DNA of 32,000 nucleotides from contig NC_010546.1 of the NCBI RefSeq assembly GCF_000017845.1, forward strand, positions 3,750,001 to 3,782,000, read 5' to 3'. This document shows, one piece after another, positions 8,129 to 32,000 of the stretch (position 1 is its first letter; every line of letters starts with the position of its first letter). Source of the stretch: Crocosphaera subtropica ATCC 51142. Lineage in GTDB: Bacteria > Cyanobacteriota > Cyanobacteriia > Cyanobacteriales > Microcystaceae. A program made the translations under genes and the position numbers. The notes under the pieces are model-generated. The model saw only the letters and a list, made by a program, of their open reading frames with translations, was not told the DNA's origin and made no database searches.

Positions 8129-8152
8129 TGGATAATGCTCCCAATGTGTTAA

Positions 8153-8743
8153 CTATGCACCAAAATAAGGGGGCTCATTCCCTGCTTTCCATTTAATATT
8201 ACAGCCAATACTCGGTTTTTGCTGAGTATCAACTTTTCTATCCCGTAAAACGTCTTCTATGGCTGCTTTTAAATCTTTTCCCGTGATAGGAACATCATTG
8301 CCAGGACGACTATCATCAAATTGGCCCCGATAAACTAAACTATTATCCCTATCAAATAGGAAAAAATCAGGGGTACAAGCTGCCGTATAAGCTTTAGCCA
8401 CTTCTTGGCTTTCATCGTAACAAAACGGAAAATTCAACCCTAATGTTTCTGCCATTTTTTTCATATGTTCTGGAGAATCATCGGGGTGGGTCGTGATATC
8501 ATTAGCACTAATGGCAACTATTCCTAAACCTTTATCTACATATTCTTTTCCTAATGCAGCCAAAGCGTCTTGAAGATGTTTGACAAAAGGACAGTGAACA
8601 CAAATAAACATCACTAATAAAGCTTTTTTATCAGCAAAGGTATCCAGAGAAATTTTCTTACCTGATACCACATCTTCTAGGGAAAAATTTGGGGCTTTGG
8701 TTCCCAACGGTAACATAGTAGAAAGGGTTTTAACCATGAGCAT
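8153..8743 (-). CDS. Thioredoxin-fold AhpC/TSA (redoxin) family protein
   Basis: GTKAPNFSLEDV...KALLVMFICVHCPFVKH has a CxxC in a redoxin context. Length 196 aa. The gene ends 24 nt before the FetB-like gene on the same strand. Confidence 0.8.
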   Translation of the reverse strand: MLMVKTLSTMLPLGTKAPNFSLEDVVSGKKISLDTFADKKALLVMFICVHCPFVKHLQDALAALGKEYVDKGLGIVAISANDITTHPDDSPEHMKKMAETLGLNFPFCYDESQEVAKAYTAACTPDFFLFDRDNSLVYRGQFDDSRPGNDVPITGKDLKAAIEDVLRDRKVDTQQKPSIGCNIKWKAGNEPPYFGA

Positions 8744-8820
8744 AACTCCTAGTACGTTATCTACACTTTAAGACAATTATCTATTGTCCCTACCAATATT
8801 TTTAATTATACTTGTTCTTG

Positions 8821-9909
8821 TTAGAGTTGTTTTAACAATTCATCAACTTTCTTAATTCCTTCTGTATTATCGTATTCTTGATACAGTTTTTTGGCGTATT
8901 GTAGGGCTTTTTTTGCTTCACTATTTCTCTGTCTTTCTTTAAAAGCGACTCCCAAATAATAATAAGGTTCAGGATTTTGAGGAATAATTTCAATTAAATC
9001 TTTATAAGTAATAATTGCTCCTAAATAATCTTTCTGGGCTAATTGAATTCTACCAACTCCTGCATAAGCTTCTGGAGATTTGCGATTAAGATAAGAGATA
9101 CGACGATAAATTTTTAGTGCCTCATCTAGATTTTCTTGTACTTCATAAATACGGGCAATTTTTAACTGAATTTTTGTATTGCTTGGATCAATTCTTTCTG
9201 CTCTTTGTAATTGTTCTTTCCCTAATTCTAGTTGGCCTTGTTGTAAATAAGCAGTCGCCAATAACAACCTTAAATCTACATCGCCAGAAAAGCGTTCTAC
9301 TGCATTACCTAAGTATTGCAAAGCTTGATCTAATTGTTTTTGTTGTAGTAAAGACGACCCCATGATAGCAAAGGCTTCAGGATTATTAGGATCAAGGGCA
9401 ATTACTCGTTTATAAGCTTCGGCAGCCCCTTCGTAATTTTCTTGACGCAGTAAAACAACCCCTAACCCAATATAACTTTTAACGAATTGGGGATTCAGTT
9501 GAATGGCATAATAATAAGCAGAAGCTGCATTATTATTATCACCAATATTGGCTAGACTATCCCCTAAAGCATAATAAAAATTAGCGTTACTCGAATCAAG
9601 AGAAAGGGCCTGTTGATAGTATTTTACCGCAGCTTGATAATTTCCTTGTTGACTGTGTAAATAGGCGATGCCTGAAAAGATTCTCGCATTATCCTTATCT
9701 AAACTCGCTGCTTGTTCGTAAGTAGCGATCGCCCGTTGATAGTCTCCTTTGTCAACATAATCTCTACCCCGACGTAATAATTCATCTAATTGTTCCTTAC
9801 TGTAATTTTGTGACACAAGAATAGAAGTATCAGGAGAAGCGATAACAGGGGTGATACTACTACCTAATATAAAAGTTGTGAGTAAAGAGAGAGTAAGTTT
9901 AGAAATCAT
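8821..9909 (-). CDS. Secreted TPR-repeat protein
   Basis: At least 8 tandem 34-aa TPR units (e.g. YQRAIATYEQAASLDKDNARIFSGIAYLHSQQGN). Met22 (nt 9909) starts a clean signal peptide, MISKLTLSLLTTFILGSSITPVIA; the longer ORF-track start at 9972 looks like an artefactual extension. Confidence 0.85.
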   Translation of the reverse strand: MISKLTLSLLTTFILGSSITPVIASPDTSILVSQNYSKEQLDELLRRGRDYVDKGDYQRAIATYEQAASLDKDNARIFSGIAYLHSQQGNYQAAVKYYQQALSLDSSNANFYYALGDSLANIGDNNNAASAYYYAIQLNPQFVKSYIGLGVVLLRQENYEGAAEAYKRVIALDPNNPEAFAIMGSSLLQQKQLDQALQYLGNAVERFSGDVDLRLLLATAYLQQGQLELGKEQLQRAERIDPSNTKIQLKIARIYEVQENLDEALKIYRRISYLNRKSPEAYAGVGRIQLAQKDYLGAIITYKDLIEIIPQNPEPYYYLGVAFKERQRNSEAKKALQYAKKLYQEYDNTEGIKKVDELLKQL

Positions 9910-9980
9910 GGTGTTTGTAAAAGAGAAATAAAAAAAGGCTTGAACGATCAAACCTTGGAACATTATAAGCAAAATTAATT

Positions 9981-10385
9981 TTAAATGCCTCGTTTAATGG
10001 CGATTTCAGCTTGCTTGAATTCTTGTTTTAAGCGTTGTTTCAACTTTTCGGGGATAGGACGACTTCCATAAGAAGTATAGTAACCAGCGAGGGCATTTAA
10101 CGCCGTTTGCATGGTGGTAAAGGAACGAAGTCCCCCAGATTTATCTTCCCGTCGATAACGAGAAATATAATCATTGATTTGTTCTCTGGCTAAAGTCTGA
10201 ATTTGTTGTTTATTGTCCGCATCATTGGGTAAATCAATAGCTGTGGTTAAGGTTTCGATCACTTTTAGAGTATCTTGGCTATAATTACCAGAAAGTCCAG
10301 CAGAACTATTACCACACCCTGTTAAAGCGACAACCGCCACCAAAACTAGGGCTAGAATACGAGATAAGGTAGATTTGAAAAACAT
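9981..10385 (-). CDS. psb27: Photosystem II assembly lipoprotein Psb27
   Basis: Signal peptide with lipobox LTGC, then the conserved Psb27 core DTLKVIETL...INDYISRYRR...SFTTMQTALNALAGYYTSYGSRPIPEKLKQRL. Confidence 0.9.
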   Translation of the reverse strand: MFFKSTLSRILALVLVAVVALTGCGNSSAGLSGNYSQDTLKVIETLTTAIDLPNDADNKQQIQTLAREQINDYISRYRREDKSGGLRSFTTMQTALNALAGYYTSYGSRPIPEKLKQRLKQEFKQAEIAIKRGI

Positions 10386-10460
10386 AAGTTGTTAATACAG
10401 TTACATAATTCTAGATTTTTCCTATCCTATCCTACAAGGGGTAACTGAGTGAAGCCCTAT

Positions 10461-10500
10461 TCGTTACGAGTTCGGGGTTCGTGGTTTGGAGTTCAGCGTT
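10461..10500. repeat. Degenerate heptanucleotide tandem repeat (GAGTTCG-like, about 5 units)
   Basis: tcgttac gagttcg gggttcg tggtttg gagttca, in the spacer between psb27 and the ABC ATPase gene. Confidence 0.7.
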
Positions 10501-10523
10501 ATGAGTCACTAATCATGTTAAAT

Positions 10524-12332
10524 TTATAGGTCAGTGATAACTGTTTTGTCAGATGTCCATCGTAGGTTTTCTGGGAATTCGGGAATAGAATTGAGGAGAT
10601 TTTTAGTATATTCTTGGTCAGGATGATTAATAATGTGTTCTGCTTCGCCTATTTCAACAATTTCCCCTTGATTCATTACCATAATGCGATCGCTCATAAA
10701 TCTCACTACACTTAAATCATGGGAAATAAAAATACAGGTCAATTTTAACTTTTCTTGTAAGTCTTTTAACAGGTTCAAAACTTGTGCTTGTACCGATACA
10801 TCTAAAGCAGAAACTGACTCATCACAGATTAAAAAACGAGGATTTAAAGCCAAGGCGCGAGCAATACAAACCCGTTGTCTTTGTCCTCCAGAAAATTCAT
10901 GAGGATAACGATTATAACTATCGGTATCTAATCCCACTAAGGTTAATAAGGCTTCTACAATTTCTCTTCTTTTCTGGCTATTCGGTTGCGTTTGATGAAT
11001 AATCATCGGTTCGGCAATGGCTTGTCCTACGGTTAATCTTGGGTTGAGAGAATTATAGGGATTCTGAAAAACAATTTGCATATTTTTTCTAAGATTCCGT
11101 AACCATTTATTGCTCATAGATTTCTTAGAAATTTCATAGGTTTCAAAGGAAACATTCCCGTTGGCTGCTGGAATAAGTCTCAAAATTGTTCTTGCTAATG
11201 TTGATTTTCCACAACCCGATTCTCCAACTAATCCCAAAGTTTCTCCAGCATAAACCTCAAAACTAATATTATTTACTGCTTTAAATTTATTGGGTTTTAG
11301 TCCAAAAAATGCTGATTTTCCAAATTCAACGCTTAACTTTTCTACTGATAATAAAACTTTCTTTTCTTGTGCTTCTTTGGTTCTCGCTTCGATTTCATCG
11401 TGAGGAATAATTTTATAAACTAAATCACTTTCTTTGGATAAGTCTAAGTCTTTATTATCTTCTAAAAAATCAGCAACTGTGGGTAATTTATCTACTTTAA
11501 TATGGAGAGGAGGACGACAAGCGAGTAACCCTTTGGTATAACCATCTTGAGGATGGAGGAGAATCTGTTCTTTTTTGCCTTGTTCTATTACTTTACCGTT
11601 CCGCATTACTAATATGTTATCGGCTACTTCATTAATCACTCCCAAATCATGGGAAATGAAAATCATGGCAATATTATTATCTTTACAAAGACCTCTTAAT
11701 AACTCTAAAATTCCTTTTTGAACTGTTACATCTAACGCAGTTGTCGGTTCATCAGCAATTAAAATAGTAGGCTGACAAGAGATAGCCATCGCAATCATAA
11801 CCCGTTGTAATTGTCCCCCAGACAGTTCATGGGGATATCTTTTTAAATAAGCTTTTGCTTGTTTATCTGGACAAGTTTGCTTTAAAACTTTGACATTTTT
11901 CAATAACTTAATGGCTTCTTGATTTGCTTCTTCCTGAGTGACATTTTGATGCAGTTTAATGGCTTCAGTTAATTGATATCCTATAGTATAAACAGGGTTA
12001 AAAGCACTCATAGGTTCTTGGAAAATCATGGCAATTTCTTTACCACGATATTTTGTCCAGTTTGCGGATTTTAAGGTGGTTAATTCAATATAATCTTGTG
12101 GCAATTGATAATATTTAATGCTACTTTCTTGAGCAATTTTTCCAGGATTTTGAATTAACCCCATAATGGCTAAAGAGGTCACAGACTTTCCTGATCCTGA
12201 CTCTCCGACAATTCCTAAAATTTCCCCTCTTCTGAGTTGAAAATTAACATTATCTACTGCCACTTTGTTTTTGTCCCCTTGTAATGGGAATTCAATACGG
12301 AGATTGGATACATCAAGAACAAGCTCGCTCAT
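10524..12332 (-). CDS. ABC transporter ATP-binding protein with duplicated ATPase domains (DppD/DppF-GsiA type)
   Basis: Two complete cassettes: GESGSGKS...LSGGQLQRVMIA...ILIADEPTTALD and GESGCGKST...FSGGQRQRVCIA...FLICDESVSALD. The likely start is the ATG at 12332 (MSELVLDVSNLRIEF) rather than 12389. Confidence 0.9.
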   Translation of the reverse strand: MSELVLDVSNLRIEFPLQGDKNKVAVDNVNFQLRRGEILGIVGESGSGKSVTSLAIMGLIQNPGKIAQESSIKYYQLPQDYIELTTLKSANWTKYRGKEIAMIFQEPMSAFNPVYTIGYQLTEAIKLHQNVTQEEANQEAIKLLKNVKVLKQTCPDKQAKAYLKRYPHELSGGQLQRVMIAMAISCQPTILIADEPTTALDVTVQKGILELLRGLCKDNNIAMIFISHDLGVINEVADNILVMRNGKVIEQGKKEQILLHPQDGYTKGLLACRPPLHIKVDKLPTVADFLEDNKDLDLSKESDLVYKIIPHDEIEARTKEAQEKKVLLSVEKLSVEFGKSAFFGLKPNKFKAVNNISFEVYAGETLGLVGESGCGKSTLARTILRLIPAANGNVSFETYEISKKSMSNKWLRNLRKNMQIVFQNPYNSLNPRLTVGQAIAEPMIIHQTQPNSQKRREIVEALLTLVGLDTDSYNRYPHEFSGGQRQRVCIARALALNPRFLICDESVSALDVSVQAQVLNLLKDLQEKLKLTCIFISHDLSVVRFMSDRIMVMNQGEIVEIGEAEHIINHPDQEYTKNLLNSIPEFPENLRWTSDKTVITDL

Positions 12333-12534
12333 AACCCTATATAATAAAAAATTTAAACAGATTTTAACTGATTTTTTTGACTTTGACAAAGATATTAACA
12401 GAGTTTCATGAATAACTAAATAACTAATAACTGATTAATAAAATCTTACCCTTTCCATAAGTAACTTAAAGTCACAATATACAAGAAGCGTGTCACAATA
12501 TAAACAAAAATGGAAATATTATACGGAGAGGGAT

Positions 12535-14262
12535 ATGGTTGCAACTCCCATCAAAACAGAAAACCGTTTAACGATACAGACTGCTGATATTGCTGAAGAT
12601 ACCACTACTATACGTTCTTTAGACTGGGATCGCGATCGCTTTGACATTGAGTTTGGCTTGCAAAATGGAACCACTTATAACTCTTATATCATTTGCGGTG
12701 ATAAAGTTGCCCTTATAGACACTTCCCATGCTAAGTTTCGCCAGTTATACCTCGATACTTTAACGGGACTCATTGACCCCAAAACCATCGACTATTTGGT
12801 TATCAGTCACACCGAACCTGATCATAGTGGTTTGGTTAAAGATATATTAGAACTGGCTCCCCAAGCAACGGTAGTGGGTTCAAAAGTGGCGATTAACTTC
12901 TTAGAAGACTTTATCCATCAACCTTTTGAGCGCATTTTAGTTAAAAGTGGGGAATCTTTAGACTTAGGAAAAGGTCATATTTTAGAATTTGTTAGCGCAC
13001 CTAACTTACATTGGCCCGACACTATCTTAACCTACGACAAAGGCACTGAAACCCTTTTTACCTGTGATGTGTTTGGAATGCACTATTGTTCGGATCTCCT
13101 TTATGACGAACATTTAGATGAGATTGCCCCAGACTATCACTTCTATTATGAATGTTTGATGGGTCCTAACGCGCGATCGGTGCTTTCTGCCATGAAACGC
13201 ATGGACAAGTTAGGAACTATATCTACTGTAGCTAATGGTCACGGTCCATTATTACGTTATAATCTCCATGAGTTAGTCGAACGTTATCGGACTTGGAGCG
13301 AAGAGCAAAGCAAAGCGGATAAGAGTGTTGCTGTGTTTTATGTGTCTGACTACGGATACAGCGATCGCCTTTCCCAAGCTATTGCTAAAGGGATTACCAA
13401 AACTGGTGTGGCAGTAGAAATGGTGGATCTCAAATCTGCTGACACCCAAGATGTCAATGAGATCGTCAGTCGATCAGCTGGTTTAGTGATTGGAATGCCT
13501 CCCCTAGAAGGTCATCATAATAAAGAAACTACCAGTAACATTGGAACCATTATTGCTGCAGCCAAAAACAAGCAATATATAGGGATGTTTGAATCCTATG
13601 GCGGTAACGATGAACCCATCGATCCCTTATTAACCAAGTTTCGAGAAGCAGGGTTAAGCAAAGGATTTAACTCCATCCGAGTTAAAGATACTCCCAGTGA
13701 AACCATTTATCAACTCTGTGAAGAAGCTGGAGTCGACTTAGGACAAACTCTAACCCAAGATCGTAAGGTAAAACAACGGAAGTCCTTAGATAGCGATTTA
13801 GATAAAGCGATCGGTCGTATTAGTGGGGGTTTATATATCCTAACTGCCAACAAAGGAGAACTTAACGGGGCTATGTTAGCCTCTTGGGTGACACAAGCGA
13901 GTTTTGAACCCCCAGGGTTTACCGTTGCTGTGGCCAAAGATCGGGCGATCGAGTCTTTGATGCAAGTGGGTGATAGCTTCGTTTTAAATATCCTTGAAGA
14001 AGGAAAATATCAACCCTTAATGAAGCATTTTCTCAAACGATTTCCCCCTGGGGCCGATCGCTTTGAAGGCATTGATGTCCAAACCGCTAACAATGGATCA
14101 CCGATTTTAGTCGATGCGTTAGCTTATTTAGAATGCGAAGTGATCAGTCGCATGGAATGTAGCGATCATTGGATTGTTTACAGTAAAGTAACCAATGGAC
14201 GAGTTTCTAACCCCGATGGCTTAACTGCGATTCATCACCGAAAAGTCGGTAACTATTATTAA
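12535..14262 (+). CDS. flv3: Class-C flavodiiron protein (metallo-beta-lactamase-like, flavodoxin-like and flavin-reductase domains), Flv3/FlvB-type
   Basis: Canonical di-iron ligands are all present: SHTEPDHSG, NLHWPD, TCDVFG and NGHGP. A flavodoxin-like region follows, then a C-terminal flavin-reductase domain (GLYILTA...GAMLASWVTQASFEPP). Intact ligands plus a solitary gene argue for Flv3/FlvB rather than Flv1/Flv2; the symbol is tentative. The ATG at 12535 is preceded by GGAGAGGGA; the GTG at 12490 is less likely. Confidence 0.85.
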   Translation: MVATPIKTENRLTIQTADIAEDTTTIRSLDWDRDRFDIEFGLQNGTTYNSYIICGDKVALIDTSHAKFRQLYLDTLTGLIDPKTIDYLVISHTEPDHSGLVKDILELAPQATVVGSKVAINFLEDFIHQPFERILVKSGESLDLGKGHILEFVSAPNLHWPDTILTYDKGTETLFTCDVFGMHYCSDLLYDEHLDEIAPDYHFYYECLMGPNARSVLSAMKRMDKLGTISTVANGHGPLLRYNLHELVERYRTWSEEQSKADKSVAVFYVSDYGYSDRLSQAIAKGITKTGVAVEMVDLKSADTQDVNEIVSRSAGLVIGMPPLEGHHNKETTSNIGTIIAAAKNKQYIGMFESYGGNDEPIDPLLTKFREAGLSKGFNSIRVKDTPSETIYQLCEEAGVDLGQTLTQDRKVKQRKSLDSDLDKAIGRISGGLYILTANKGELNGAMLASWVTQASFEPPGFTVAVAKDRAIESLMQVGDSFVLNILEEGKYQPLMKHFLKRFPPGADRFEGIDVQTANNGSPILVDALAYLECEVISRMECSDHWIVYSKVTNGRVSNPDGLTAIHHRKVGNYY

Positions 14263-21336: not shown

Positions 21337-23244
21337 ATGAAAAAAATAAGTAACTACAAAACTATTCTCAAATATTTATTCATTCCTGGGTTAATTTTAA
21401 CTGTTGCTGGTTTAGTTCCTCTTTTTATTACTAAAACTCAGAGTATTCTTTATCTCAGTTTAGTGATTGCAGGAGGTATATTCTTATTTATCTGGTTAAT
21501 CTATTTATTAGTAACAGGAAGAAGTTTTTGGCAGAAAAGATCAACACAAACAGGGACAAATGCTTTTGTTTCTGTCTTATCTTTAGTGATTATATTGGGA
21601 TTAATTAATTTTATTGCGGTTCGTTATTCTCCTCGTATTGATTTGACCGAAAATCAACTTTATACTTTATCCCCAGAAACGCAAGAAATCGTTAAAAATC
21701 TAGACAAACCGACTAAAGTTTATGTTTTTGACAAGGAAATAACTCCTCAAGATGAAGATTTATTAGAAAATTATCAACGTTACAATAATAACTTTCAATT
21801 TGAACTGATTGATCCTGATATTAAAGTGGGACTGACTGAACAGTTTAATGTTCAATCATTAGGAGATGTTTATCTAGAATATGGAGATAAAAAACAATTA
21901 GTTCAAACCTTAATTGTTTTTAATCAAAGGGAACCCTTATCAGAAATCAAACTAACCAATGCAATTGAAAAAATCAAGAAGGATTATATTCCAAAAATTT
22001 ATCTATTACAAGGTCATGGGGAATATTCCTTAGAACCCTCCCCCGAAGGAAGTTTATCAGAAGCAACCAACAGTCTTGAAAGTAAAGGATATGAAGTTAA
22101 CCCCTTAAACTTAGTAGAAAATGCAGGTATTCCTGATGATGCAGATGTCATTATTATTGCCAGTCCAAAACGTCAATTATTTGAGCAAGAAGTGACAGCA
22201 TTAAAAGAGTATTCTGAACAAGGTGGTAACTTATTTTTATTACTCGATCCTAACACAGATCCAGGGTTAGAACCTATACTAAAAGACTGGGGAATTCAAT
22301 TAGATAATCGTATTATTATAGATGGTTCAGGGTCAGGAAATATTGTCGGTTTAGGACCAACAACTCCCTTTATTACTAACTACGGGAACCACCCAATTAC
22401 AGAAGAATTTGCTAATAGTATTTCTTTTTATCCGTTATCTCGTCCTGTAGATACGGTTGAGGTAGAAAACATCGAAGCAACCTCTTTATTAGTCACGAAT
22501 GAACAAATGTGGGCTGAAAGTAATTTAGAATCAGAAGAAGTTATTTTTGATCCCGAAGAAGACATTCCTGGACCTTTTGATTTAGGAGTTGCATTAACCC
22601 GTACAATTGATAAAGAAGTAGTCAATAATGACACAAAAGAAGATAATCAAAATAGTGAAACAAATGAAGGAATTGAAAATTTAGATGAATCTGAAAACAA
22701 AGAAATAGAAAATAATAATAATTCTGAACAAGAAACGGAGGAACAAAATCAGTCAGATTCTTCTGATAATGAAGTTAATAATAATACTGAACAAGAAAAG
22801 GATGATAACAATAGTGAAACTATCAATAATCAATCTGATGTAAATGAAGAGGAAACAGAAGGTAATAATAACTCTGACTCATCAGTTAATGACGAAACCA
22901 ATAAAAATCAAAAAGAAGAAAATACGTCTAACCCTTCTAATAATGAACAAAATAATAACCCTGAAAAAGAGCAAATCGAATCTCGTTTAGTAGTAATTGG
23001 AAATTCTACCTTTGCTACTGATAGTTTATTCAATCAACAATTAAACGGAGATGTCTTTTTAAACTCTGTACAATGGTTAAGTAATCAAGATGATCAACCT
23101 CTATCCATTCGTCCCAAGGAACCAAAAGATAGAAAACTAAATTTATCCCCCTTACAAGCTAATATAATCACCATATTGTCCCTGGGTATTGTTCCTTTAT
23201 TGGGGTTAATTGCTGCTGGAATAACCTGGTGGCGAAGAAGATAA
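21337..23244 (+). CDS. GldG-like ABC-transporter auxiliary protein with a ~120-aa acidic low-complexity insertion
   Basis: N-terminal TM helices, the GldG-type core (RIDLTENQLYTLSPET...IYLLQGHGE...LFLLLDP...SFYPLSRP...RLVVIGNSTFATD) and a C-terminal TM anchor. The N/E/D/S-rich insertion is encoded at about 22618-22980. Confidence 0.85.
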   Translation: MKKISNYKTILKYLFIPGLILTVAGLVPLFITKTQSILYLSLVIAGGIFLFIWLIYLLVTGRSFWQKRSTQTGTNAFVSVLSLVIILGLINFIAVRYSPRIDLTENQLYTLSPETQEIVKNLDKPTKVYVFDKEITPQDEDLLENYQRYNNNFQFELIDPDIKVGLTEQFNVQSLGDVYLEYGDKKQLVQTLIVFNQREPLSEIKLTNAIEKIKKDYIPKIYLLQGHGEYSLEPSPEGSLSEATNSLESKGYEVNPLNLVENAGIPDDADVIIIASPKRQLFEQEVTALKEYSEQGGNLFLLLDPNTDPGLEPILKDWGIQLDNRIIIDGSGSGNIVGLGPTTPFITNYGNHPITEEFANSISFYPLSRPVDTVEVENIEATSLLVTNEQMWAESNLESEEVIFDPEEDIPGPFDLGVALTRTIDKEVVNNDTKEDNQNSETNEGIENLDESENKEIENNNNSEQETEEQNQSDSSDNEVNNNTEQEKDDNNSETINNQSDVNEEETEGNNNSDSSVNDETNKNQKEENTSNPSNNEQNNNPEKEQIESRLVVIGNSTFATDSLFNQQLNGDVFLNSVQWLSNQDDQPLSIRPKEPKDRKLNLSPLQANIITILSLGIVPLLGLIAAGITWWRRR

Positions 23245-23828: not shown

Positions 23829-23936
23829 TATATTTTCAGATTAATTTTATAATCTAATCAAAAACTAGGGAACGGCATCTTTGTTTAATAAGTCTCATCA
23901 ATAAGATGGGAAAACAAAGACAAAACTACAGTGATC

Positions 23937-25625
23937 ATGAATAATTTTCGTGCTATATGTATAGGAATAGAAGACTATTTACATTATCAACCCTTAAACG
24001 GATCTGAAAATAGCGCACAAGCACTTTATCGCTACTTCTTTGAAGAAGCTAACATCCCATCTCATCAATTATTATTACTGACTGATACCTCTCCCTCCCC
24101 AGGAAAACGATCAACCTATCCTAACCGAGATAATATTTTACAATGGATTAATGATAGTCCCATTAAAGTTGAATATTGCTGGTTTTTCTTTCAAGGATAC
24201 GGTATTAATTATCAAGGAGAAGACTACTTACTACCGATCGATAGTAACTTAAACACTATTCCCCAAACAGCTATAAAAGTGCGATCGCTTTTTGAAAAAT
24301 TACAAAATAGTAGCCAAAATTTACTCATCATTTTAGACTTACAAAATCCTTTAAAAGATGGGAAATTAGGACAAATAACTTTAGATTTAGCTCAGAAAAA
24401 AAATATTTCTTTGATTTTTTCTTGTCGTTCCCATGTTTATCAAAGCATTAGTGCAGAAAAAAGTATCTTTATTACTGCCTTAACCGAAGCTTTGCGCTAC
24501 TATAGTCATCATTTAACCCTTCATAAGTTAGACGCTTACTTCAAAGAAAGATTAAATCCTTCCCATCAAAAGGATTTTCCAGCGATCGCCCTTCCCATTA
24601 TTATTAGTCCTGAAACGATTCGTCATCAACCCCTATTACCTGCTTCTAAAAAGCCAATACTAGACAATCAAGAAAATCAAGCCCTATCGTTCAAAATTCA
24701 ACAAAAACCCCATCAAAGCCCTGACCAAAAGCCCACAAGTACCCTAATCTTACCTAAGATCCCATCAACCCCTTTCAAACCCCAACTGTCCTTAAATATC
24801 CCTCTGACGCAAACTAACATTAAACCGAGTTCTCCTGCTGCTTCTTTACCTTCTGTTTCCTCAACTGCCACAACAACCCCTGAACCTTCAAAAAAGTCAT
24901 CCCTAGGAAAATACTGGTTATGGATAGGAGGAATATTAGCAACAACCGCCGTTGTATGGTGGATGTCTCTGAAAATTGGTCAACATCTCAATGCTATCAA
25001 TTATCAAAAAATTCAAGAAAACCAACAGATTTTAGACTATGGGAAAATTTCCTTAAGTGTGCAACAAGCATCCCAATTTAACCAAGCTATTAGCTATGCA
25101 CGACAAATTCAACCCCATACAGCCCTGTATCAGCAAGCTCAGGTCAAAATTAACCAATGGAGCCAAATGATCCTAGATATTGCCCAAGGAAGAGCGATTA
25201 TAGGGGATTTTCAAGGGGCGATCGCAGCCATTAAACTGGTTCCTCCCGATAACCAACAACTTTATAATTTGGCACAACAATCTTTAAAAGAGTGGCAAAC
25301 CCTCAGTCAACAACAACACGATAATCAAGTTTTAATTGAAGCTGCCCTATCTTTAATTGAACCCAACCAAGCATCATCTTATAATCGAGCCATTAGACTC
25401 CTAAAACACTTAGAGAAAAAAGAGTTAGGTTATCATCATGCCCAAAAATTGATTGAACAATTAAGTAAAAACATATATCAATTAGCGCAAACCAGGGCCC
25501 AACAAGGACAATTAACCTTAGCCATTGAAACCATTGAATTAGTCCCCAATGATACTCAAGTTTATTCAATGGCACAAGAAGCAAAAATAAACTGGCAACA
25601 ACATCTTAATCGTACATCTAACTAA
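23937..25625 (+). CDS. Pseudo-orthocaspase: caspase (C14)-like domain with both catalytic residues substituted, Pro/Ser linker, one TM helix, C-terminal repeat domain
   Basis: The p20-like layout is AICIGIEDY...GSENSAQ...CWFFFQGYG...EDYLLPID...LLIILDLQNP. The canonical SGHG His is Tyr90 (TAC 24198-24200). The canonical D-x-C Cys is Gln138 (CAA 24342-24344). TM helix YWLWIGGILATTAVVWWMSL. The C-terminus has three copies of a motif ending ...LVP(P/N)D.Q.Y..AQ....W. ATG at 23937 (GTG at 23931 also possible). Confidence 0.7.
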   Translation: MNNFRAICIGIEDYLHYQPLNGSENSAQALYRYFFEEANIPSHQLLLLTDTSPSPGKRSTYPNRDNILQWINDSPIKVEYCWFFFQGYGINYQGEDYLLPIDSNLNTIPQTAIKVRSLFEKLQNSSQNLLIILDLQNPLKDGKLGQITLDLAQKKNISLIFSCRSHVYQSISAEKSIFITALTEALRYYSHHLTLHKLDAYFKERLNPSHQKDFPAIALPIIISPETIRHQPLLPASKKPILDNQENQALSFKIQQKPHQSPDQKPTSTLILPKIPSTPFKPQLSLNIPLTQTNIKPSSPAASLPSVSSTATTTPEPSKKSSLGKYWLWIGGILATTAVVWWMSLKIGQHLNAINYQKIQENQQILDYGKISLSVQQASQFNQAISYARQIQPHTALYQQAQVKINQWSQMILDIAQGRAIIGDFQGAIAAIKLVPPDNQQLYNLAQQSLKEWQTLSQQQHDNQVLIEAALSLIEPNQASSYNRAIRLLKHLEKKELGYHHAQKLIEQLSKNIYQLAQTRAQQGQLTLAIETIELVPNDTQVYSMAQEAKINWQQHLNRTSN

Positions 25626-25788: not shown

Positions 25789-25901
25789 ATATAGCGTTTC
25801 TTGGACTCATGAGGTACACCTAATATTTAACTCCTGACTCCTGACTCCTGACTCCTAAAACTAGAAAATGGTGTACCTCACAAGTATGAGAACTGCTATA
25901 T
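25789..25901. repeat. MITE-like element: 32-bp imperfect inverted repeats flanking a (CTCCTGA)x3 heptamer core
   Basis: The left arm 25789-25820 and right arm 25870-25901 are complementary at 25 of 32 positions, with the first 11 (ggtgtacctca) perfect. The core 25831-25856 is ctcctga x3 plus ctcct. No coding capacity. Confidence 0.6.
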
Positions 25902-26343: not shown

Positions 26344-28212
26344 ATGAATACAAGATACACAGAAACTTTTTTGTTTCTCTCTCGCCTTTCCCGTAGAAGT
26401 AACAAAGGCTTTGCTTTGGGATTTGTGTTAACGGCTGGCGTTCTCATGGCAGCAACCGGGGCTGTTATGTTACTCAGAAGTAGCAGCGAACAAGAAAAAG
26501 TTATAGCGCAAGGAGCTACTGCCCAAGGCAAAACCAGTGGAGAAGTTGCTATTGCTAGAGTACAATTTCTTCTCGCTAGATATCCCTTTCTCGCTCAATA
26601 TGATAGTTCTCAATGGAGCAATGTAGCTAATCCCAGTACAGATATTGGACAAGACTTTGAAGAACACATTGAGATCACAAATAATACAGGTGGTCGAGAA
26701 AGTTCTTGTGCAAGTGAAAGTGAAGAAGATAGCAGTGAAGTTTTAACCCCTGAACAACAGCAAGCTGAGATTATTAGCTACGTTGATACATACACATCAG
26801 ATTTAAGTCCTTATGAGCAATCAGGCCAAAGCAAATGGCAACAAATCGATACCACGAATTCTAGTCAGGTAGATTTCAGACTTATTAGTTATAACGCTCC
26901 TGAATCAGTACCAGGTATGGGAGAGTTAAAACTTCAGAGCATGGCGAATCGAGACAAACAATTCAAAGAATCGCCTACTCAATTAACTGTAACTATTCCA
27001 GTAAAACAAAATGAGACAACAACGGAAGTTGAAGAAGGAGATACTCCTGGCCTCTGGACTCAACAGGGAAAAGTTATCAAAGGTAGTGGGGGAGGTGGTA
27101 ATAAACACTGGGCTGCCCATATTTGGGTCAGTGATCCTTGTTATAGTCAGAAACCAGATGATCCAGCAACTTTAGAAGTGTTAGAAGATATAGAAGACGA
27201 AACTTTACTCAGTTACAACGGGAAAACCTATAAACCACCTATTGTTAAAGATATGGATTTTCCTGAGTTTCCTGAATTTCCTACTGATCTTCCTGCAAGT
27301 CAAGTCAATGTGACTGTCTCAAGTGGCAATGGCAATGGCAATGGCAATGGCAATAAAAAAGCTAGTAGCTATCAAGATAGTTATTTCTCTACTGTTGCCA
27401 GTGTGATGAATGGGTTTGTGGATAAAGCATTTACTAAAATTTTCGGTGGTGTTGCTTTAGCTAAAAATGGCAACGGTAAGGGCAAGGGTCTAGTTGATGA
27501 CATCACTGATACCACGAATGATGTAGTCGATGACATCACTGATACTACAAATGATATAGTCGATGATCTCACGAATACAGAGAATACAAACGATACCACC
27601 AATGTTGGTGGCGGGGCTGTTTGTGGAAATAACAGTGCTAATGCTGCCAATGGAAGCGTATTTCCCAGAAATGGAGATACAGGTAAGATAGTCAAAGTCG
27701 GCAATGAAGACGTTTGCGTTTATGAATATATCTGGAATCAAACCCCCAGTGATACGACCATTCAAACTGTCAGCCAAGATGGTAAACGTCAAAAGGTAAT
27801 TTTCTACATAAAAGATGGAGTCGATTTTGATCTCAAAGGCAACGAGAAAATTCTCAAAAACTGTGGGGATTTTGACGACAATGCGGATCTCTGTAGACCA
27901 ACGGATTTCCAAATATTTGCCCAAGGAACTGGCAATTTTTGTTTAAGTGGTGCTGTGGTTATGGATGCCTTTGTTTTTGCTCCAGAACGTCATTCTGGAG
28001 TCAATGGAGGACCAAAAGGAGCCTTGAGAGGAACCATTTGGGTGAAAGGATGGAATACTTCTAGCTGTGGTTCTAATGGTAATCATCTTCACGTTACTCA
28101 AACAGGAAACTGGTCAGATTTTTATGGGGTAAAAAACCCTGAAGCCGGTCCGTCCATTGTTATTGGACAACCTGCCACCGTTAAAACTGAAGCCTTTAAT
28201 CCCGATATATAA
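26344..28212 (+). CDS. Large (622 aa) PilX_N-type pseudopilin-like protein, paralogue A, with internal tandem repeats
   Basis: The class-III-like N-terminus is RRSNKG|FALGFVLTAGVLMAATGAVMLL (no Glu at +5), followed by ...AQGKTSGEVAIARV as in PilX N-terminal domains. It is colinear with the next gene. It contains the GNGNGNGNGN and VDDITDTTND repeats. Confidence 0.75.
   Translation: MNTRYTETFLFLSRLSRRSNKGFALGFVLTAGVLMAATGAVMLLRSSSEQEKVIAQGATAQGKTSGEVAIARVQFLLARYPFLAQYDSSQWSNVANPSTDIGQDFEEHIEITNNTGGRESSCASESEEDSSEVLTPEQQQAEIISYVDTYTSDLSPYEQSGQSKWQQIDTTNSSQVDFRLISYNAPESVPGMGELKLQSMANRDKQFKESPTQLTVTIPVKQNETTTEVEEGDTPGLWTQQGKVIKGSGGGGNKHWAAHIWVSDPCYSQKPDDPATLEVLEDIEDETLLSYNGKTYKPPIVKDMDFPEFPEFPTDLPASQVNVTVSSGNGNGNGNGNKKASSYQDSYFSTVASVMNGFVDKAFTKIFGGVALAKNGNGKGKGLVDDITDTTNDVVDDITDTTNDIVDDLTNTENTNDTTNVGGGAVCGNNSANAANGSVFPRNGDTGKIVKVGNEDVCVYEYIWNQTPSDTTIQTVSQDGKRQKVIFYIKDGVDFDLKGNEKILKNCGDFDDNADLCRPTDFQIFAQGTGNFCLSGAVVMDAFVFAPERHSGVNGGPKGALRGTIWVKGWNTSSCGSNGNHLHVTQTGNWSDFYGVKNPEAGPSIVIGQPATVKTEAFNPDI
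27325..27354 (+). repeat. Hexanucleotide microsatellite (GGCAAT)x5 encoding (Gly-Asn)5
   Basis: A perfect 5-unit repeat inside paralogue A. A degenerate echo, aatggcaacggtaagggcaagggt, lies at about 27466-27489. Confidence 0.9.
27493..27591 (+). repeat. In-frame 33-bp tandem repeat x3 (VDDITDTTNDV / VDDITDTTNDI / VDDLTNTENTN)
   Basis: The units are 27493-27525, 27526-27558 and 27559-27591. The first two differ at only a few positions and the third is more diverged. Confidence 0.9.
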
Positions 28213-28232
28213 ATGTAATCCCAATCATTCTT

Positions 28233-28274
28233 TACCTCTGACTGAAATCACAGTTAGAGGTAGTCCAATTTTTT
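28233..28274 (+). terminator. Intercistronic terminator-like hairpin between the two large paralogues
   Basis: TACCTCTGACT (28233-28243) pairs with AGTTAGAGGTA (28252-28262), giving an 11-bp stem with one G-U and an 8-nt loop. T6 at 28269-28274 follows 6 nt later. It could act as a partial terminator or a processing site. Confidence 0.4.
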
Positions 28275-28302
28275 CGATAATGACTTGTTTCCCAACAATG
28301 CT

Positions 28303-29709
28303 ATGAATCTCAAGTTAAAACTATTATTACTCAATCGCAATAACGACCAAGGAATGGCGTTAGCCTTCGCTTTAAGCATCGGTGTAATCATGATGTTAGC
28401 CGGAACCATCATGATTGTTCGTTCTCAAACCGATCAAACCCATGTTCAAGCACAACAAAGTACAGCAGAAAGCGTCAGTGCTGCTGAAGTTGGAGCAACC
28501 CGTATTTTTTCCTTGCTGAATGAAAACCGTTACCTAGCTATGTATCCTGACTGTAACAGTCGAGACATTAACGGACTGTGTGGCGATACGGGAACTACCC
28601 CCAGTTGGGCTAATGCCATTAATGTTCCTAAGCTTACGGTTTGTGAAGAAGGCAAAGCAACAAATGTTCGGGAGATTGCCCTTAACCAAGACTGGCAACC
28701 CATCGATCCTAATAATACAAAACAAGGAGAATACCGATTACTGTCTTACGAATATGCTAACCCTGGAATTGCACCTGGGAAGGGTAAATTAACCGTAGAA
28801 GGACGAATTCGCGCCCATAACGACTTTACTGGTTCTGTGAGTCAACTGACCGTAGAAATTCCCGTTTCTCCTGGCCCAGTCGAAGGTACGCCTATTCCTG
28901 GCGTGTGGTTAAACGATGATCCCACCGATGCCACAGGGAATAACGGGGTTGAAGGAGATGTCTTGATGGGCAACTGTAACTTGACCAAAGAACAACTCGC
29001 TGAACTTAATGTGACAGGAACCGATCCTCAAACCGGTCAACCTTACCAAGCCAAGCATACAAATTTAGAATTCCCTGATCCCCCTGAAATTCCCTCCACT
29101 GCTATTTATTTAGGGGTAGTTGGAGAAAACAAAGACGGAACATTAGCTGGTATTTCAGGAGACATTACCTTACCCAGAGTGGGAGATACTCCTGTCACCA
29201 AAACCATTAACAACAAAACCGTTGAGGTTTATGAATACGAAGTAGAAGAAATTAATTTTGATTCAGGTTCCCATTCTCTAACCATCGAACCTGGCAAAAA
29301 AGTCACCCTCTATCTTAACGGCAGCATGATTGTCAAGAGTAACAGTGGCATTATTCATAGTTGTACCAACTCTGACGGAACTCCTATTGCTGGTTGTTTA
29401 CCCACAGACTTCCAAATTTATGGCCTTGGGGATGCCACTAATACCATTTGCACCGCAGGAAATAAACGCATCGAAGCCTTTATTTTTGCTCCAGAATACA
29501 TTGTAGGAACGGCTGGCACCGGCGGAGGACAAGGCGGTATTAAAGGGACGATTTGGGCAAAGGAATGGTCCAATAGTAAGTCTTGTGGTTCACAAACGAG
29601 TAATACGGCGGTAGTTCAGACCGCAAGATGGGAAGACTTAGGATTAGAACCTAAAAATACCCCTCCTCTATTATCCAATACCTCCAGTTGGAAGCGTAAC
29701 CAAAGATAA
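28303..29709 (+). CDS. Large (468 aa) PilX_N-type pseudopilin-like protein, paralogue B
   Basis: The ATG at 28303 gives MNLKLKLLLLNRNNDQG|MALAFALSIGVIMMLAGTIMIV (no Glu+5), then ...STAESVSAAEVGATRI. It shares YRLLSY/FRLISY, SQLTVEIPV/TQLTVTIPV, VEVYEY/VCVYEY, C.PTDFQI(Y/F), EAFIFAPE/DAFVFAPE, GTIW.K.W and SCGS with paralogue A. Confidence 0.75.
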   Translation: MNLKLKLLLLNRNNDQGMALAFALSIGVIMMLAGTIMIVRSQTDQTHVQAQQSTAESVSAAEVGATRIFSLLNENRYLAMYPDCNSRDINGLCGDTGTTPSWANAINVPKLTVCEEGKATNVREIALNQDWQPIDPNNTKQGEYRLLSYEYANPGIAPGKGKLTVEGRIRAHNDFTGSVSQLTVEIPVSPGPVEGTPIPGVWLNDDPTDATGNNGVEGDVLMGNCNLTKEQLAELNVTGTDPQTGQPYQAKHTNLEFPDPPEIPSTAIYLGVVGENKDGTLAGISGDITLPRVGDTPVTKTINNKTVEVYEYEVEEINFDSGSHSLTIEPGKKVTLYLNGSMIVKSNSGIIHSCTNSDGTPIAGCLPTDFQIYGLGDATNTICTAGNKRIEAFIFAPEYIVGTAGTGGGQGGIKGTIWAKEWSNSKSCGSQTSNTAVVQTARWEDLGLEPKNTPPLLSNTSSWKRNQR

Positions 29710-29748: not shown

Positions 29749-30558
29749 ATGAACAAACCACTACTCACCTTACTACTTTGTCCCTCAAAACCAAATAATG
29801 ATCAAGGTTTTAGTCTTTTTGAAGTTACTATTGCCATCTTAGTGTCCTCAGCCTTTTTGATGGGAACCTTACAAGCAATGACCATTAATGCTGTCATGCA
29901 AATTAAATCAGAAAGACAAGCTAAAGCTAACTTTATCATTCAACAAGATATCGAAAAATTACAGGCCGCAGCCAGTAGTATGGATCTTGACTATATCGAA
30001 AACAATCTTAACCCCGATGGGAAAAGTAAATCCCAACTTTGCTTTCGTTTTAAAATTCCTAATATGGCAGATGTCCGTTTTGGGGCTGATTTAGTCAAAG
30101 AATTGGATGATATTCTAACAAATGACAGCGAACCTAGCACTAAATCTGATCCAGCTATCAATACTAATACAGTTTTTTCCTCTGCTCAAACCTTCAATCA
30201 GTTCAAAACTGATGCTGATGGCAATGTTCTTTATACCAATGGTCAACCAGTATTGAATGAACAAAAAGATTCTGTTGAAACGAGCGACAGTAAAAAAGTC
30301 GTAGTCCAAATATTAATGAACGACGATATCCTCAACAAAAACTATCGTCTTGTTCGATTAATGACAGTCGATAGCAGCACCAGATACGACGTTTTACAAG
30401 TTTATTATCGAGTCGGAGAACCCTATGACCCCAATGATCCCAACCAAACAGATAACGACAGCGACAGACTACGGGATGATCAATCTGGTAGAAAATCAAT
30501 CATCGCCGAAAATTATACAGAAGTTATTCCGGCCGCTGTTGCTGAGTGCGGTTTCTAA
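29749..30558 (+). CDS. Prepilin-type minor pilin, PilV-like
   Basis: MNKPLLTLLLCPSKPNNDQG|FSLFEVTIAILVSSAFLMGTLQAM has the canonical G|F-x-x-x-E class III signal with a hydrophobic helix. The Cys is near the C-terminus. The subfamily call is tentative. Confidence 0.7.
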   Translation: MNKPLLTLLLCPSKPNNDQGFSLFEVTIAILVSSAFLMGTLQAMTINAVMQIKSERQAKANFIIQQDIEKLQAAASSMDLDYIENNLNPDGKSKSQLCFRFKIPNMADVRFGADLVKELDDILTNDSEPSTKSDPAINTNTVFSSAQTFNQFKTDADGNVLYTNGQPVLNEQKDSVETSDSKKVVVQILMNDDILNKNYRLVRLMTVDSSTRYDVLQVYYRVGEPYDPNDPNQTDNDSDRLRDDQSGRKSIIAENYTEVIPAAVAECGF

Positions 30559-31081
30559 TCCCAATCAAGGAGTAACCCTTCTAGAAATCATCATTGCTGC
30601 CGTCATTACTGGCATCTTAGCTGCGATCGGCATTCCTAGCTTGATGGGAATGCTACAAGGAGATCAAGTTAAACAAGGGGTTGATCAAATTCAACTGGCC
30701 TTACAAGATGCTCAAAAACAAGCCATCCGTAACTCCAAACAATGCACTATTATCATCGATAAAACCGCCACTCCCCCTACCATTGACATCAAAGATCCCC
30801 ATCTTCCTAATAATCAAGGTTGTTTAGGTTCGGTTGAGCGAACATTACCTAACAATGTGGTTATGACTGGCAATTTTACCAACAATGAGGTCAGTTTTTC
30901 TTTTAAAGGGAATACAACAACAATGGGTACCATTGTCGTCAAACCGGCTAAAGGTGGCGGGGAAAAAAGATGTTTAGTCATGGGTTTAGGACTAGGCCTT
31001 ATGAGAACAGGAATTTACGATTCAAGCGCATCTGATAATCCTCCTAGTGCGACTAATTGCAAGAAAGTAACAGACAGTTAA
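30539..31081 (+). CDS. Prepilin-type pseudopilin, GspH/FimT-like
   Basis: NPNQG|VTLLEIIIAAVITGILAAIGIPSLMGMLQGDQVKQGVDQIQLALQDAQKQAIRNSKQCTI fits the GspH/FimT pattern. No ATG lies near the signal. I place the start at the TTG at 30539 (11-aa leader), overlapping the upstream gene by 20 nt. The start is uncertain. Confidence 0.65.
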   Translation: MLSAVSNPNQGVTLLEIIIAAVITGILAAIGIPSLMGMLQGDQVKQGVDQIQLALQDAQKQAIRNSKQCTIIIDKTATPPTIDIKDPHLPNNQGCLGSVERTLPNNVVMTGNFTNNEVSFSFKGNTTTMGTIVVKPAKGGGEKRCLVMGLGLGLMRTGIYDSSASDNPPSATNCKKVTDS

Positions 31082-31090
31082 GAAAAAATC

Positions 31091-32000
31091 ATGTTAAAAA
31101 TCTATTTAAAACTCTTACAAAAATATCGTCCTTCTGCTGGCTGGACTTTAGCAGAATTAATCATTGCATCCGCCATGACTTTGATCGTGGTTATGGTAGC
31201 AGGGTTTAGTTTAGTGACTATTTTACGGGAAAACAAAGTGGCTAATGCTACAGGCCAAATGCAATATGACATGAATAGGGCAACGGAATTTATCTCAGAA
31301 GAAATTCGTGGTGCCAAAACCATTGAAACCGATCAAGCAGTAATTTATAATGCTGCCCCAACCTTTTATAAAAAATACGTTGAAGGGAAAGCCAATCCGA
31401 AAATTCCTATCTTAGCTTTGAAAATCGATGGGGTTTATGAGCGAGTTGTGTATTATGTCGACGAAGTGGCTGATGGAGAAATTTGGCAAGGTCCTGGAGT
31501 CATTCGACGCTTTGGCCCAGCATTCACGGCTACAGGTGAACACGATGATGCACAGAAAAGAACCCCCGATACCTGGCAGAGTAGTGCGCTCGTAGACATG
31601 ATGGTAACAACGTTAGATACTCCGCAAAAACAATGTCAAAATTTACCCCCTGATGTAGTGAGTGCTAATACTTATGTTGCTACCGATGATCAAGGAAATC
31701 AATGGTATCGTCTTCCCCAAAAAGAAGCAGACGTGAAAGGGTTTTTTGTTTGTGTCCAAGAAAATAAACAATTGGTGCAATTGAATATTGTTGGTACAAG
31801 TTTGGATGAATTCGCACATTTAGGCTATGACAAAAACGATATTTCAGAAGGCAAGTCCCGTTACGCCGACAAGATGGAGTACAATATCGCTACCATGGTT
31901 CATGCTCGTTCTGAAGCTATTGGTGGTGGCGGAGAAGCGGTTCCCGATTTTTTAGTCAGTCAGCAAATTATTAAATTACAAGAAAGTGGTAAGGCAAAAC
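31091..32000 (+). CDS. Prepilin-type minor pilin, PilW-like; 3' end outside the window
   Basis: This ORF is not in the supplied track. I translated from the ATG at 31091 and found no stop through nt 32000 (303 codons): MLKIYLKLLQKYRPSAG|WTLAELIIASAMTLIVVMVAGFSLVTILRENKVANATGQMQYDMNRATEFISEEIRGAK. It starts 9 nt after the previous stop. The track ORF 31102..31323 (-) lies antisense inside it. Confidence 0.75.
   Translation, partial: MLKIYLKLLQKYRPSAGWTLAELIIASAMTLIVVMVAGFSLVTILRENKVANATGQMQYDMNRATEFISEEIRGAKTIETDQAVIYNAAPTFYKKYVEGKANPKIPILALKIDGVYERVVYYVDEVADGEIWQGPGVIRRFGPAFTATGEHDDAQKRTPDTWQSSALVDMMVTTLDTPQKQCQNLPPDVVSANTYVATDDQGNQWYRLPQKEADVKGFFVCVQENKQLVQLNIVGTSLDEFAHLGYDKNDISEGKSRYADKMEYNIATMVHARSEAIGGGGEAVPDFLVSQQIIKLQESGKAK

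Follow-up and report, generated by a model that had tools for sequence, protein, structure and literature searches.

The pilin locus described here lies near the end of a 32,000-nucleotide (nt) stretch of DNA from Crocosphaera subtropica (formerly Cyanothece) ATCC 51142 (contig NC_010546.1, positions 3,750,001 to 3,782,000 of the forward strand), which was analysed as a whole and is called the window throughout. The element under study is a cassette of short, in-frame tandem repeats inside the open reading frame (ORF) 26344-28212, the translation of which was 100% identical to the cce_3646 gene product (gene A, protein A). Gene A is followed by its paralogue, cce_3647 (gene B, protein B), and by three further pilin-like genes. 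The features of the locus are compiled in Table 1. Literature searches found no paper on cce_3645 to cce_3650 or on DUF7305.

Table 1. Features of the minor-pilin locus, numbered from the first nucleotide of the window. A slash within a motif marks the assumed prepilin cleavage site. aa, amino acids; TRF, Tandem Repeats Finder.
Feature	Position	Strand	Basis
Gene A (cce_3646), 622 aa, PilX-type (ComZ-like) minor pilin with repeat cassette	26344-28212	+	paralogy with B and family search
Pilin-like N-terminal hydrophobic helix of A, ...SNKG/FALGFVLTAGVLMAATGAVMLLRSS	26404-26484	+	read from sequence; AlphaFold
9-bp repeat TTTCCTGA(G/A) x2.7, encoding FPEFPEFP, aa 306-313	27259-27282	+	TRF
Tract 1, perfect (GGCAAT)x5, encoding (Gly-Asn)5, aa 328-337	27325-27354	+	TRF; codon shuffles
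Conserved non-repetitive helix motif YFSTVASVMNGFVDKAFTKIFGGVALA, aa 347-373, between the low-complexity tracts	27382-27462	+	orthologue conservation; AlphaFold
Tract 2, hypervariable low-complexity loop, aa 374-426	27463-27621	+	AlphaFold; orthologue comparison
NGNGKGKG head of tract 2, AATGGCAACGGTAAGGGCAAGGGT, aa 375-382	27466-27489	+	read from sequence
33-bp unit array, encoding VDDITDTTND(V/I), aa 384-416	27493-27591	+	TRF; codon shuffles
C-terminal beta-rich domain of A, aa ~438-590, homologous to the DUF7305 beta-solenoid of B	27655-28113	+	AlphaFold; BLASTP
Terminator-like hairpin, 13-bp stem then T run, in the 72-bp gap between A and B	28232-28263	+	consensus scan only
Gene B (cce_3647), 474 aa, PilX-type minor pilin, DUF7305 beta-solenoid, without repeats	28285-29709	+	Pfam; AlphaFold; Foldseek
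Minor pilin, 269 aa, prepilin motif G/FSLFE (Glu5 present)	29749-30558	+	weak Pfam N_methyl and TIGR02532 matches
FimT/GspH-type minor pilin, motif G/VTLLE, 180 aa from the likely true start	30539-31081	+	Pfam N_methyl and GspH; NCBIfam ComGD/GspH-type
Fifth pilin-like gene, ~480 aa, motif G/WTLAE, leaves the window at its end	31091-32000	+	translation; 478-481 aa gene in syntenic loci

The tandem paralogues A and B encode minor pilins of the cyanobacterial PilX type, in which, as in ComZ, the pilin fold carries an inserted beta-solenoid. BLASTP aligned the two proteins with 30% identity at aa 20-238 of protein A and with 38% identity between aa 483-593 of protein A and aa 338-452 of protein B; the middle could not be aligned. 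The Pfam family DUF7305 matched protein B at aa 324-423 (E 1.4e-7). The AlphaFold model of protein B had a mean predicted local distance difference test score (pLDDT) of 81, with no segment below 50 beyond residue 22, and a Foldseek search of the PDB with this model ranked ComZ of Thermus thermophilus first (6qvi; E 3e-6, probability 1.0) and ice-binding proteins next (E 0.1-0.2). In the model of protein A, a long helix was present at aa 23-79 and stacked strands were present at aa 438-585, the strands with a pLDDT of mostly 80-93. The N-terminal segment of protein A was near-identical in all orthologues.

The residue at position +5 of the mature protein, assuming cleavage after Gly22, was Phe in protein A (KG/FALGF) and Phe in protein B (QG/MALAF), whereas Glu5 was present in the three pilins encoded downstream (FSLFE, VTLLE, and WTLAE). 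The capping subunit PilX/GspK is characterised by its lack of Glu5 (Schuergers et al., bioRxiv 10.64898/2026.02.12.705559). Our inference is that one minor-pilin operon here encodes two alternative capping subunits, A and B, and that protein A is located at the pilus tip. The two genes head the operon, and the three Glu5-bearing minor pilins would complete its priming or tip complex.

An exhaustive profile search of representatives placed A and B in a family of 736 members; a word-indexed profile search had given only the same 15 proteins. The typical match consisted of N-terminal and C-terminal stretches around a variable middle. Among 30 sampled members, DUF7305 was detected in 21, an ice-binding-like adhesive domain in two, and PilX_N in one (E 9.6e-4). 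Protein A itself was not matched by the curated PilX model (Pfam PilX_N, PF14341). Two B-type relatives carried the COG-based label 'Tfp pilus assembly protein PilX' of the Joint Genome Institute (JGI). Horizontal acquisition of gene A was considered and rejected on composition, as its GC content (0.41) and GC content at third codon positions (GC3, 0.29) were similar to those of neighbouring genes.

A reading made from the DNA alone (the sequence-only reading) had described four in-frame repeat elements in gene A, and these proved real. All four were found in frame 0 of the ORF at the positions given in Table 1, and the 9-, 6-, and 33-bp arrays were recovered by TRF (27259-27282, 2.7 copies; 27324-27354, 5.2 copies, 100% match; 27491-27566, 2.3 copies, 90% match). 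The unit lengths are all multiples of three. Chance occurrence was assessed by 2000 codon shuffles of the ORF. The 6-bp run of 25 exceeded the shuffle maximum of 13 and the 33-bp match of 30/33 exceeded the shuffle maximum of 25; neither value was reached in any of the shuffles. The exact run of the 9-bp repeat was reached in 145 of the 2000 shuffles and is therefore not beyond chance alone.

The 33-bp array, counted as three units in the sequence-only reading, consisted of two good copies (27493-27558, identical at 29 of 33 positions) and a third (27559-27591) that matched copy 2 at 20 of 33 positions and is a degenerate relic. Copies 1 and 2 differed at four positions, three of the changes being synonymous. 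Two minus-strand ORFs over the cassette (27381-27704 and 27490-27924) had no family support and were taken as repeat artefacts. A near-perfect palindrome (ACCACCAATGTTGGTGGC, 27595-27614), which encodes TTNVGG, lies in the coding sequence right after the 33-bp array. It was found as a minus-strand hairpin in the terminator scan and is probably a chance occurrence.

TRF detected no tandem repeat in gene B. The repeats had been described as absent from the paralogue, and this holds for the arrays as such, but protein B carries a single-copy FPDPPEIP that is homologous to FPEFPEFP and occupies the same place. The repeats had also been credited with much of the size difference between the two proteins. 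The net difference in length is 148 aa. Within the cassette region, 104 residues of protein A (315-363, 372-413, and 426-438) faced gaps in protein B, but only about 51 of these residues were strictly repetitive; the rest belonged to the conserved, non-repetitive helix motif and spacer. Protein B runs from the FP motif directly into the strand AIYLGVV, then through a short loop into the TLPR strand, and the C-terminal part of the helix motif of protein A aligned with AIYLGVV. The cassette is therefore the expansion of a single loop at the start of the solenoid, which measures about 12 residues in protein B and about 110 in protein A. The loop in protein A has three parts: tract 1, (GN)5; the conserved helix motif; and tract 2, which joins the NGNGKGKG head to the acidic 33-bp repeats.

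The AlphaFold model of protein A had a mean pLDDT of 71, and its pilin and solenoid parts were modelled with confidence. The pLDDT fell below 50 at aa 330-358 and 367-422, segments that take in the (GN)5 tract, the NGNGKGKG head, and the 33-bp units; the corresponding loop is short in the well-folded protein B. A helix was modelled with low confidence at aa 346-366. The loop is predicted to be disordered and is probably exposed at the surface. FPEFPEFP was modelled with a pLDDT of 74-92, and the family shows almost no variation at P307 and P310. The sequence-only reading had included it among the variable elements. It is instead a conserved, structured PxxPxxP motif, and its reading as a 9-bp repeat is incidental.

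Comparison of 15 A-type orthologues showed that the tract 2 homologue is an indel hotspot. Its length, measured between the helix and the conserved FPR motif that follows, varied from 6 to 81 aa, with only 6-20 aa in P0019, P0002, and P0008. The stretch that begins at the FP motif and ends with the helix was nearly constant in length (51-73 aa, mostly 63-65 aa). Eleven of the 15 orthologues contained their own, different, lineage-specific, in-frame tandem arrays at exactly the position of tract 2. These were GGTAAA x5.8 and a 15-bp unit x3.2 (TPETP) in L006, CAATGG x11.7 in L010, RGRGN and SDTGS units in L011, an 18-bp unit x4.7 (GGGGST) in C. chwakensis CCY0110, a 9-bp unit x14.6 (GSS) in Cyanothece BG0011, and (NG) x6.7 with (SGS) x9.7 in MO_167.B6. 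The composition of tract 2 was loosely kept: the head is basic (Asn/Lys/Arg-Gly), and the body after it is acidic or rich in Ser/Thr/Gly. The sequence of the tract was not kept.

The other two parts of the loop behaved differently. A GN-rich tract similar to tract 1 was present only in P0002, and the remaining orthologues had a non-repetitive segment of the same length at this place; the (GN)5 tract thus looks like a length-constrained spacer. Of the 187 family members collected, those of the Crocosphaera/Rippkaea subclade alone had the helix motif, conserved as STIAxxMNxFVDKAFNNxFGGVALA.

Gene A was also highly divergent outside the loop. Protein A was 32-36% identical to its syntenic orthologues in L004, L005, and L006, compared to 81-83% for protein B and 60-95% for the flanking proteins. 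At the nucleotide level, only the first ~70 codons of gene A and the upstream DNA could be aligned (84%). The first ~70 residues were almost invariant between species, and the rest was 30-45% identical.

Differences in repeat copy number were detected between close relatives. Rippkaea orientalis PCC 8801 and a second strain, with proteins 98% identical, differed by four single nucleotide polymorphisms (SNPs) over 1668 nt; the only two indels were both in tract 2: AATGGT (Asn-Gly) was present in two vs. three copies and a 15-bp unit in one vs. two. The length of the protein thus changed without inactivation of the gene, as the sequence-only reading had expected of in-frame units. Two proteins from Crocosphaera metagenome-assembled genomes (P0007 and P0009, 89% identical) had gaps at tract 2 only. 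Copy-number polymorphism is accordingly established for the homologous tract in sister lineages and not for cce_3646 itself.

Recombinational exchange of the region was evident between L010 (a Logan assembly, 337-2211) and Cyanothece sp. BG0011 (L021:3001-4836), which were ~98% identical across the locus. The two genes had no mismatches at nt 300-899 and 1600-1899, whereas nt 900-1600 contained 15-35 mismatches per 100 nt, and tract 2, on which this ~700-bp divergent block is centred, could not be aligned. The synonymous substitution rate (dS) was 0.35-0.40 in the block vs. 0.04 and 0.00 in its flanks, and the ratio of nonsynonymous to synonymous rates (dN/dS, omega) of the block was 0.27. Such a pattern is indicative of imported DNA and not of a local acceleration in protein evolution.

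Gene-wide dN/dS of gene A was 0.21 between close relatives, and the maximum, a pN/pS of 0.84, was found in a codon window spanning the helix and tract 2; these were low-power tests. Gene-wide positive selection on gene A was considered and rejected with omega values of 0.21 and 0.27. The figures are compatible with relaxed constraint, and positive selection is not demonstrated. The diversifying selection proposed in the sequence-only reading, in the strict sense of the term, is thus not shown.

We consider it likely that the repeats are in-frame, low-complexity expansions, generated by slippage and recombination, in a loop that is disordered and belongs to a subunit of the type IV pilus tip. 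Tract 2 would accept nearly any sequence at nearly any length. Through replication slippage and unequal recombination, arrays with units in multiples of three would continually be formed, resized, and replaced. Each change would alter how long the loop is and what chemistry its surface presents at the pilus tip, and the protein would not be inactivated. Variation of the loop may carry a selective benefit. The element is a fairly ordinary slippage-prone surface loop and not the adhesin stalk that had been suggested, since it is an internal loop of ~110 aa with two to five copies of short units, a conserved helix motif in its middle, and folded parts on both sides.

Several observations weigh against this interpretation. 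Protein A had no Pfam and no NCBIfam match at E<=0.1 (protein B was likewise without an NCBIfam match), and its AlphaFold model had no significant PDB neighbour in a Foldseek search, with nothing below E 0.4. The missing PDB match is probably due to the disordered third of the model and to its multi-domain geometry. Since protein A alone matches no curated model and has no PDB neighbour, its family assignment follows from paralogy with protein B. Disorder of the loop is predicted from low pLDDT in a model built on a 42-sequence alignment. The 90% cluster of cce_3646 was a single sequence and the collections contain only one C. subtropica strain; three Logan runs of that strain were 100% identical to the window over 5.3 kb. 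The identical sets L011-L013 and L006-L008 were, like the same-strain Logan runs, uninformative on polymorphism. A gapped-flank pattern scan for other copy numbers of (GGCAAT)n gave no matches in metagenome and species-representative genome collections. The pattern matches the window once, but ATCC 51142 was returned neither by it nor by a protein-based scan that did return relatives, and the stretch may be masked or absent in the species-representative genome collection. The synonymous bias between copies 1 and 2 of the 33-bp unit and the compositional pattern kept in tract 2 hint at constraint beyond that on a neutral spacer.

The same patterns could have arisen by selection. In an adaptive hypervariable surface element, rapid changes in the length and chemistry of the loop would be selected at the pilus tip, possibly for escape from pilus-binding phages or grazers or for the retuning of adhesion or self-recognition, and the repeats would act as a true diversifying or contingency mechanism. 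Gene A was by far the most divergent gene of the locus, its central block was swapped between strains that are otherwise 98% identical, repeat-unit indels between the Rippkaea strains were about as frequent as SNPs over the whole gene, and pN/pS peaked around the cassette, all as an adaptive element would have it. An unconstrained loop predicts all of these patterns equally, however, and dN/dS never exceeded 1, either gene-wide or in the recombinant block. The arrays in gene A are also short, at two to five copies, and within-strain variation was not seen in the three runs. We therefore regard adaptive hypervariability as an unlikely, if serious, explanation. The reverse proposal, that gene A is a redundant duplicate under relaxed constraint since the A/B duplication and heading for pseudogenisation, would account for its much faster evolution relative to gene B and for the single PilX gene in the operon of some relatives (L009 and L011). 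Those single-copy operons hold the A type and not the B type, however, and the gene A ORF was intact in all of ~15 lineages. With the low dN/dS between close relatives and the conservation of the N-terminus, of Cys, Trp, and Pro positions, and of the helix motif, decay is extremely improbable.

A further possibility is that the repeat peptides are functional motifs, in which VDDITDTTND would bind Ca2+ or be O-glycosylated, Gly-Asn/Gly-Lys would contact DNA or polysaccharide, and copy number would set valency. The mostly synonymous differences between the first two 33-bp copies and the basic Gly-rich head with an acidic or Ser/Thr-rich body in most orthologues would fit such motifs, and DNA binding by ComZ-type tip pilins and glycosylation of cyanobacterial pilins have been described (10.64898/2026.02.12.705559). 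Yet the unit sequences are not conserved, with TPETP, SDTGS, GGGGST, GSS, GDSG, or none in orthologues, no Pfam or NCBIfam motif matched, and AlphaFold predicts disorder there. VDDITDTTND was also considered as an EF-hand or PilY1-like calcium site; this was rejected, as the unit is conserved in no orthologue. Function in the repeat peptides themselves is thus rather improbable, and slippage- and recombination-generated expansion of a tolerant loop remains the preferred explanation. There is a slim chance, comparable to that of functional repeat peptides, that the conserved amphipathic helix on two disordered tethers is a device specific to Crocosphaera/Rippkaea PilX at the pilus tip: a latch, a plug, or an element that binds a partner, the membrane, or DNA, with its reach tuned by slippage and swapping of tract 2. 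The conserved cap B and the diversifying cap A would then compete for the same PilV/PilW/FimT base.

The gene order of the operon was common to L004, L005, L006, L009, and L011, and the locus was syntenic in other Crocosphaera genomes. The gene for the 269-aa pilin was syntenic in all related loci. The FimT/GspH-type pilin gene overlaps it by 20 nt if it starts at 30539; the longest ORF (30425-31081, 218 aa) probably over-extends this pilin, as gene calls on identical contigs begin at 30539. The hairpin between genes A and B may separate transcription or attenuation of gene A from the rest of the operon. In L005 (unicellular cyanobacterium SU3), both PilX slots are of the A type (8001-9758, 585 aa; 10419-12107, 562 aa) and a B-type (DUF7305-scoring) gene was not present; the content of the PilX slots is therefore not fixed. 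In L015 (R. orientalis PCC 8801, 7691-12627), only a 106-aa ORF, two group II intron reverse-transcriptase genes of equal length (607 aa), and an IS605 OrfB gene were found downstream of the A-type PilX gene. The other genes of the minor-pilin operon do not adjoin this stretch and have perhaps been displaced.

A perfect 7-bp tandem repeat, ACTCCTG x3.9, is located at 25830-25856, in the 718 bp of intergenic DNA that precede gene A. This unit is non-coding and not a multiple of three, and it could matter for expression. Directly upstream of the pilin operon is a gene for a caspase-like Peptidase_C14 protein (23931-25625), kept at the same position in all syntenic Crocosphaera loci. The protein has a transmembrane segment at its centre, and its C-terminal half is repetitive and rich in Gln. 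The second in-frame repeat region of the window (22624-22680, a 27-bp unit x2.1) is in a gene unrelated to the pilins. That gene (ORF 21337-23244) encodes an ABC-transporter auxiliary protein with a long Asn/Glu/Asp/Ser-rich low-complexity insert.

In all cyanobacterial PilX homologues, the pilin fold is described as interrupted by a triangular beta-solenoid, and these subunits have been proposed to cap and plug the pilus tip, taking over the tip plug and adhesin role that PilY1 has elsewhere in bacteria (Schuergers et al., bioRxiv 10.64898/2026.02.12.705559). Proteins A and B resemble the PilX_Com type (Synechocystis PilX1-3 and S. elongatus RntA) in their Glu5-less pilin helix and bulky DUF7305, ice-binding-protein-like solenoid (Schuergers et al.), and their genes stand, like those of cyanobacterial PilX, together with genes for FimT/GspH-, PilV-, and PilW-type minor pilins. 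Their size is modest (474-622 aa, compared to 450-620 aa for PilX_Com-like proteins) and they had no HpsA model match; the Com and EPS subtypes are not distinguished by these figures. Unlike the PilX proteins described so far, protein A has the extra loop of ~110 aa, found, among the family members collected, only in the Crocosphaera/Rippkaea subclade. The preprint mentions neither the loop nor the repeats, the word 'disordered' is absent from its text, and the accessible part of its supplement does not list ATCC 51142. The three-part insert of Crocosphaera/Rippkaea (tether, conserved helix, tether) and the pairing of a hyper-divergent cap with a conserved one appear to be undescribed. ComZ (6qvi), the best structural neighbour of the protein B model, likewise has a pilin fold interrupted by a beta-solenoid; its sequence identity was 11-12% and the global TM-score was 0.25, probably reflecting a different domain arrangement. 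ComZ is not known to carry a repeat-bearing disordered loop.

Exposed loops of surface proteins are well known to carry in-frame low-complexity repeats, and hypervariable mosaic pilin genes are equally familiar. The cassette resembles surface proteins with variable numbers of tandem repeats (VNTR), such as the Ser-Asp regions of staphylococcal Sdr/Clf adhesins and the low-complexity linkers of pilus-associated adhesins, in having Gly/Ser/Asn/Asp-rich units in multiples of three that keep the frame and, for the homologous tract in Rippkaea, in strain differences in copy number through slippage. It differs from VNTR adhesins in that the arrays of two to five copies (10-33 aa) are inside a globular subunit rather than in a stalk between an anchor and a ligand-binding domain. 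Protein A also lacks a cell-wall or outer-membrane anchor; its N-terminus is pilin-like. A conserved N-terminus and a recombinant block with ~9-fold the dS of its flanks are shared with mosaic pilins (Neisseria pilE and the allele groups of Pseudomonas pilins and minor pilins), although the variable subunit is here a capping minor pilin and not, as in Neisseria pilE, the major pilin. Like contingency loci, gene A has a perfect short array, (GGCAAT)x5, which is at the short end for hexanucleotide slippage; on/off switching does not apply to units of 6, 9, and 33 bp that are in frame inside the ORF. Silent donor cassettes were not evident in the window, and no evidence of programmed variation was found.

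Type IV pili of cyanobacteria function in motility, aggregation, buoyancy, and DNA uptake, and Crocosphaera is an important marine and coastal nitrogen fixer. The presence of a repeat-prone, recombining gene A beside a conserved, repeat-free gene B offers a concrete way to learn which part of the surface of the tip complex can vary freely or is driven to do so. Tract 2 would be a natural permissive site for tags in a tip subunit and is a potential marker for strain typing. The finding suggests that these organisms keep two alternative pilus caps. Differences at the pilus tip could influence how susceptible the cells are to phages, how they aggregate, and how they exchange genes.

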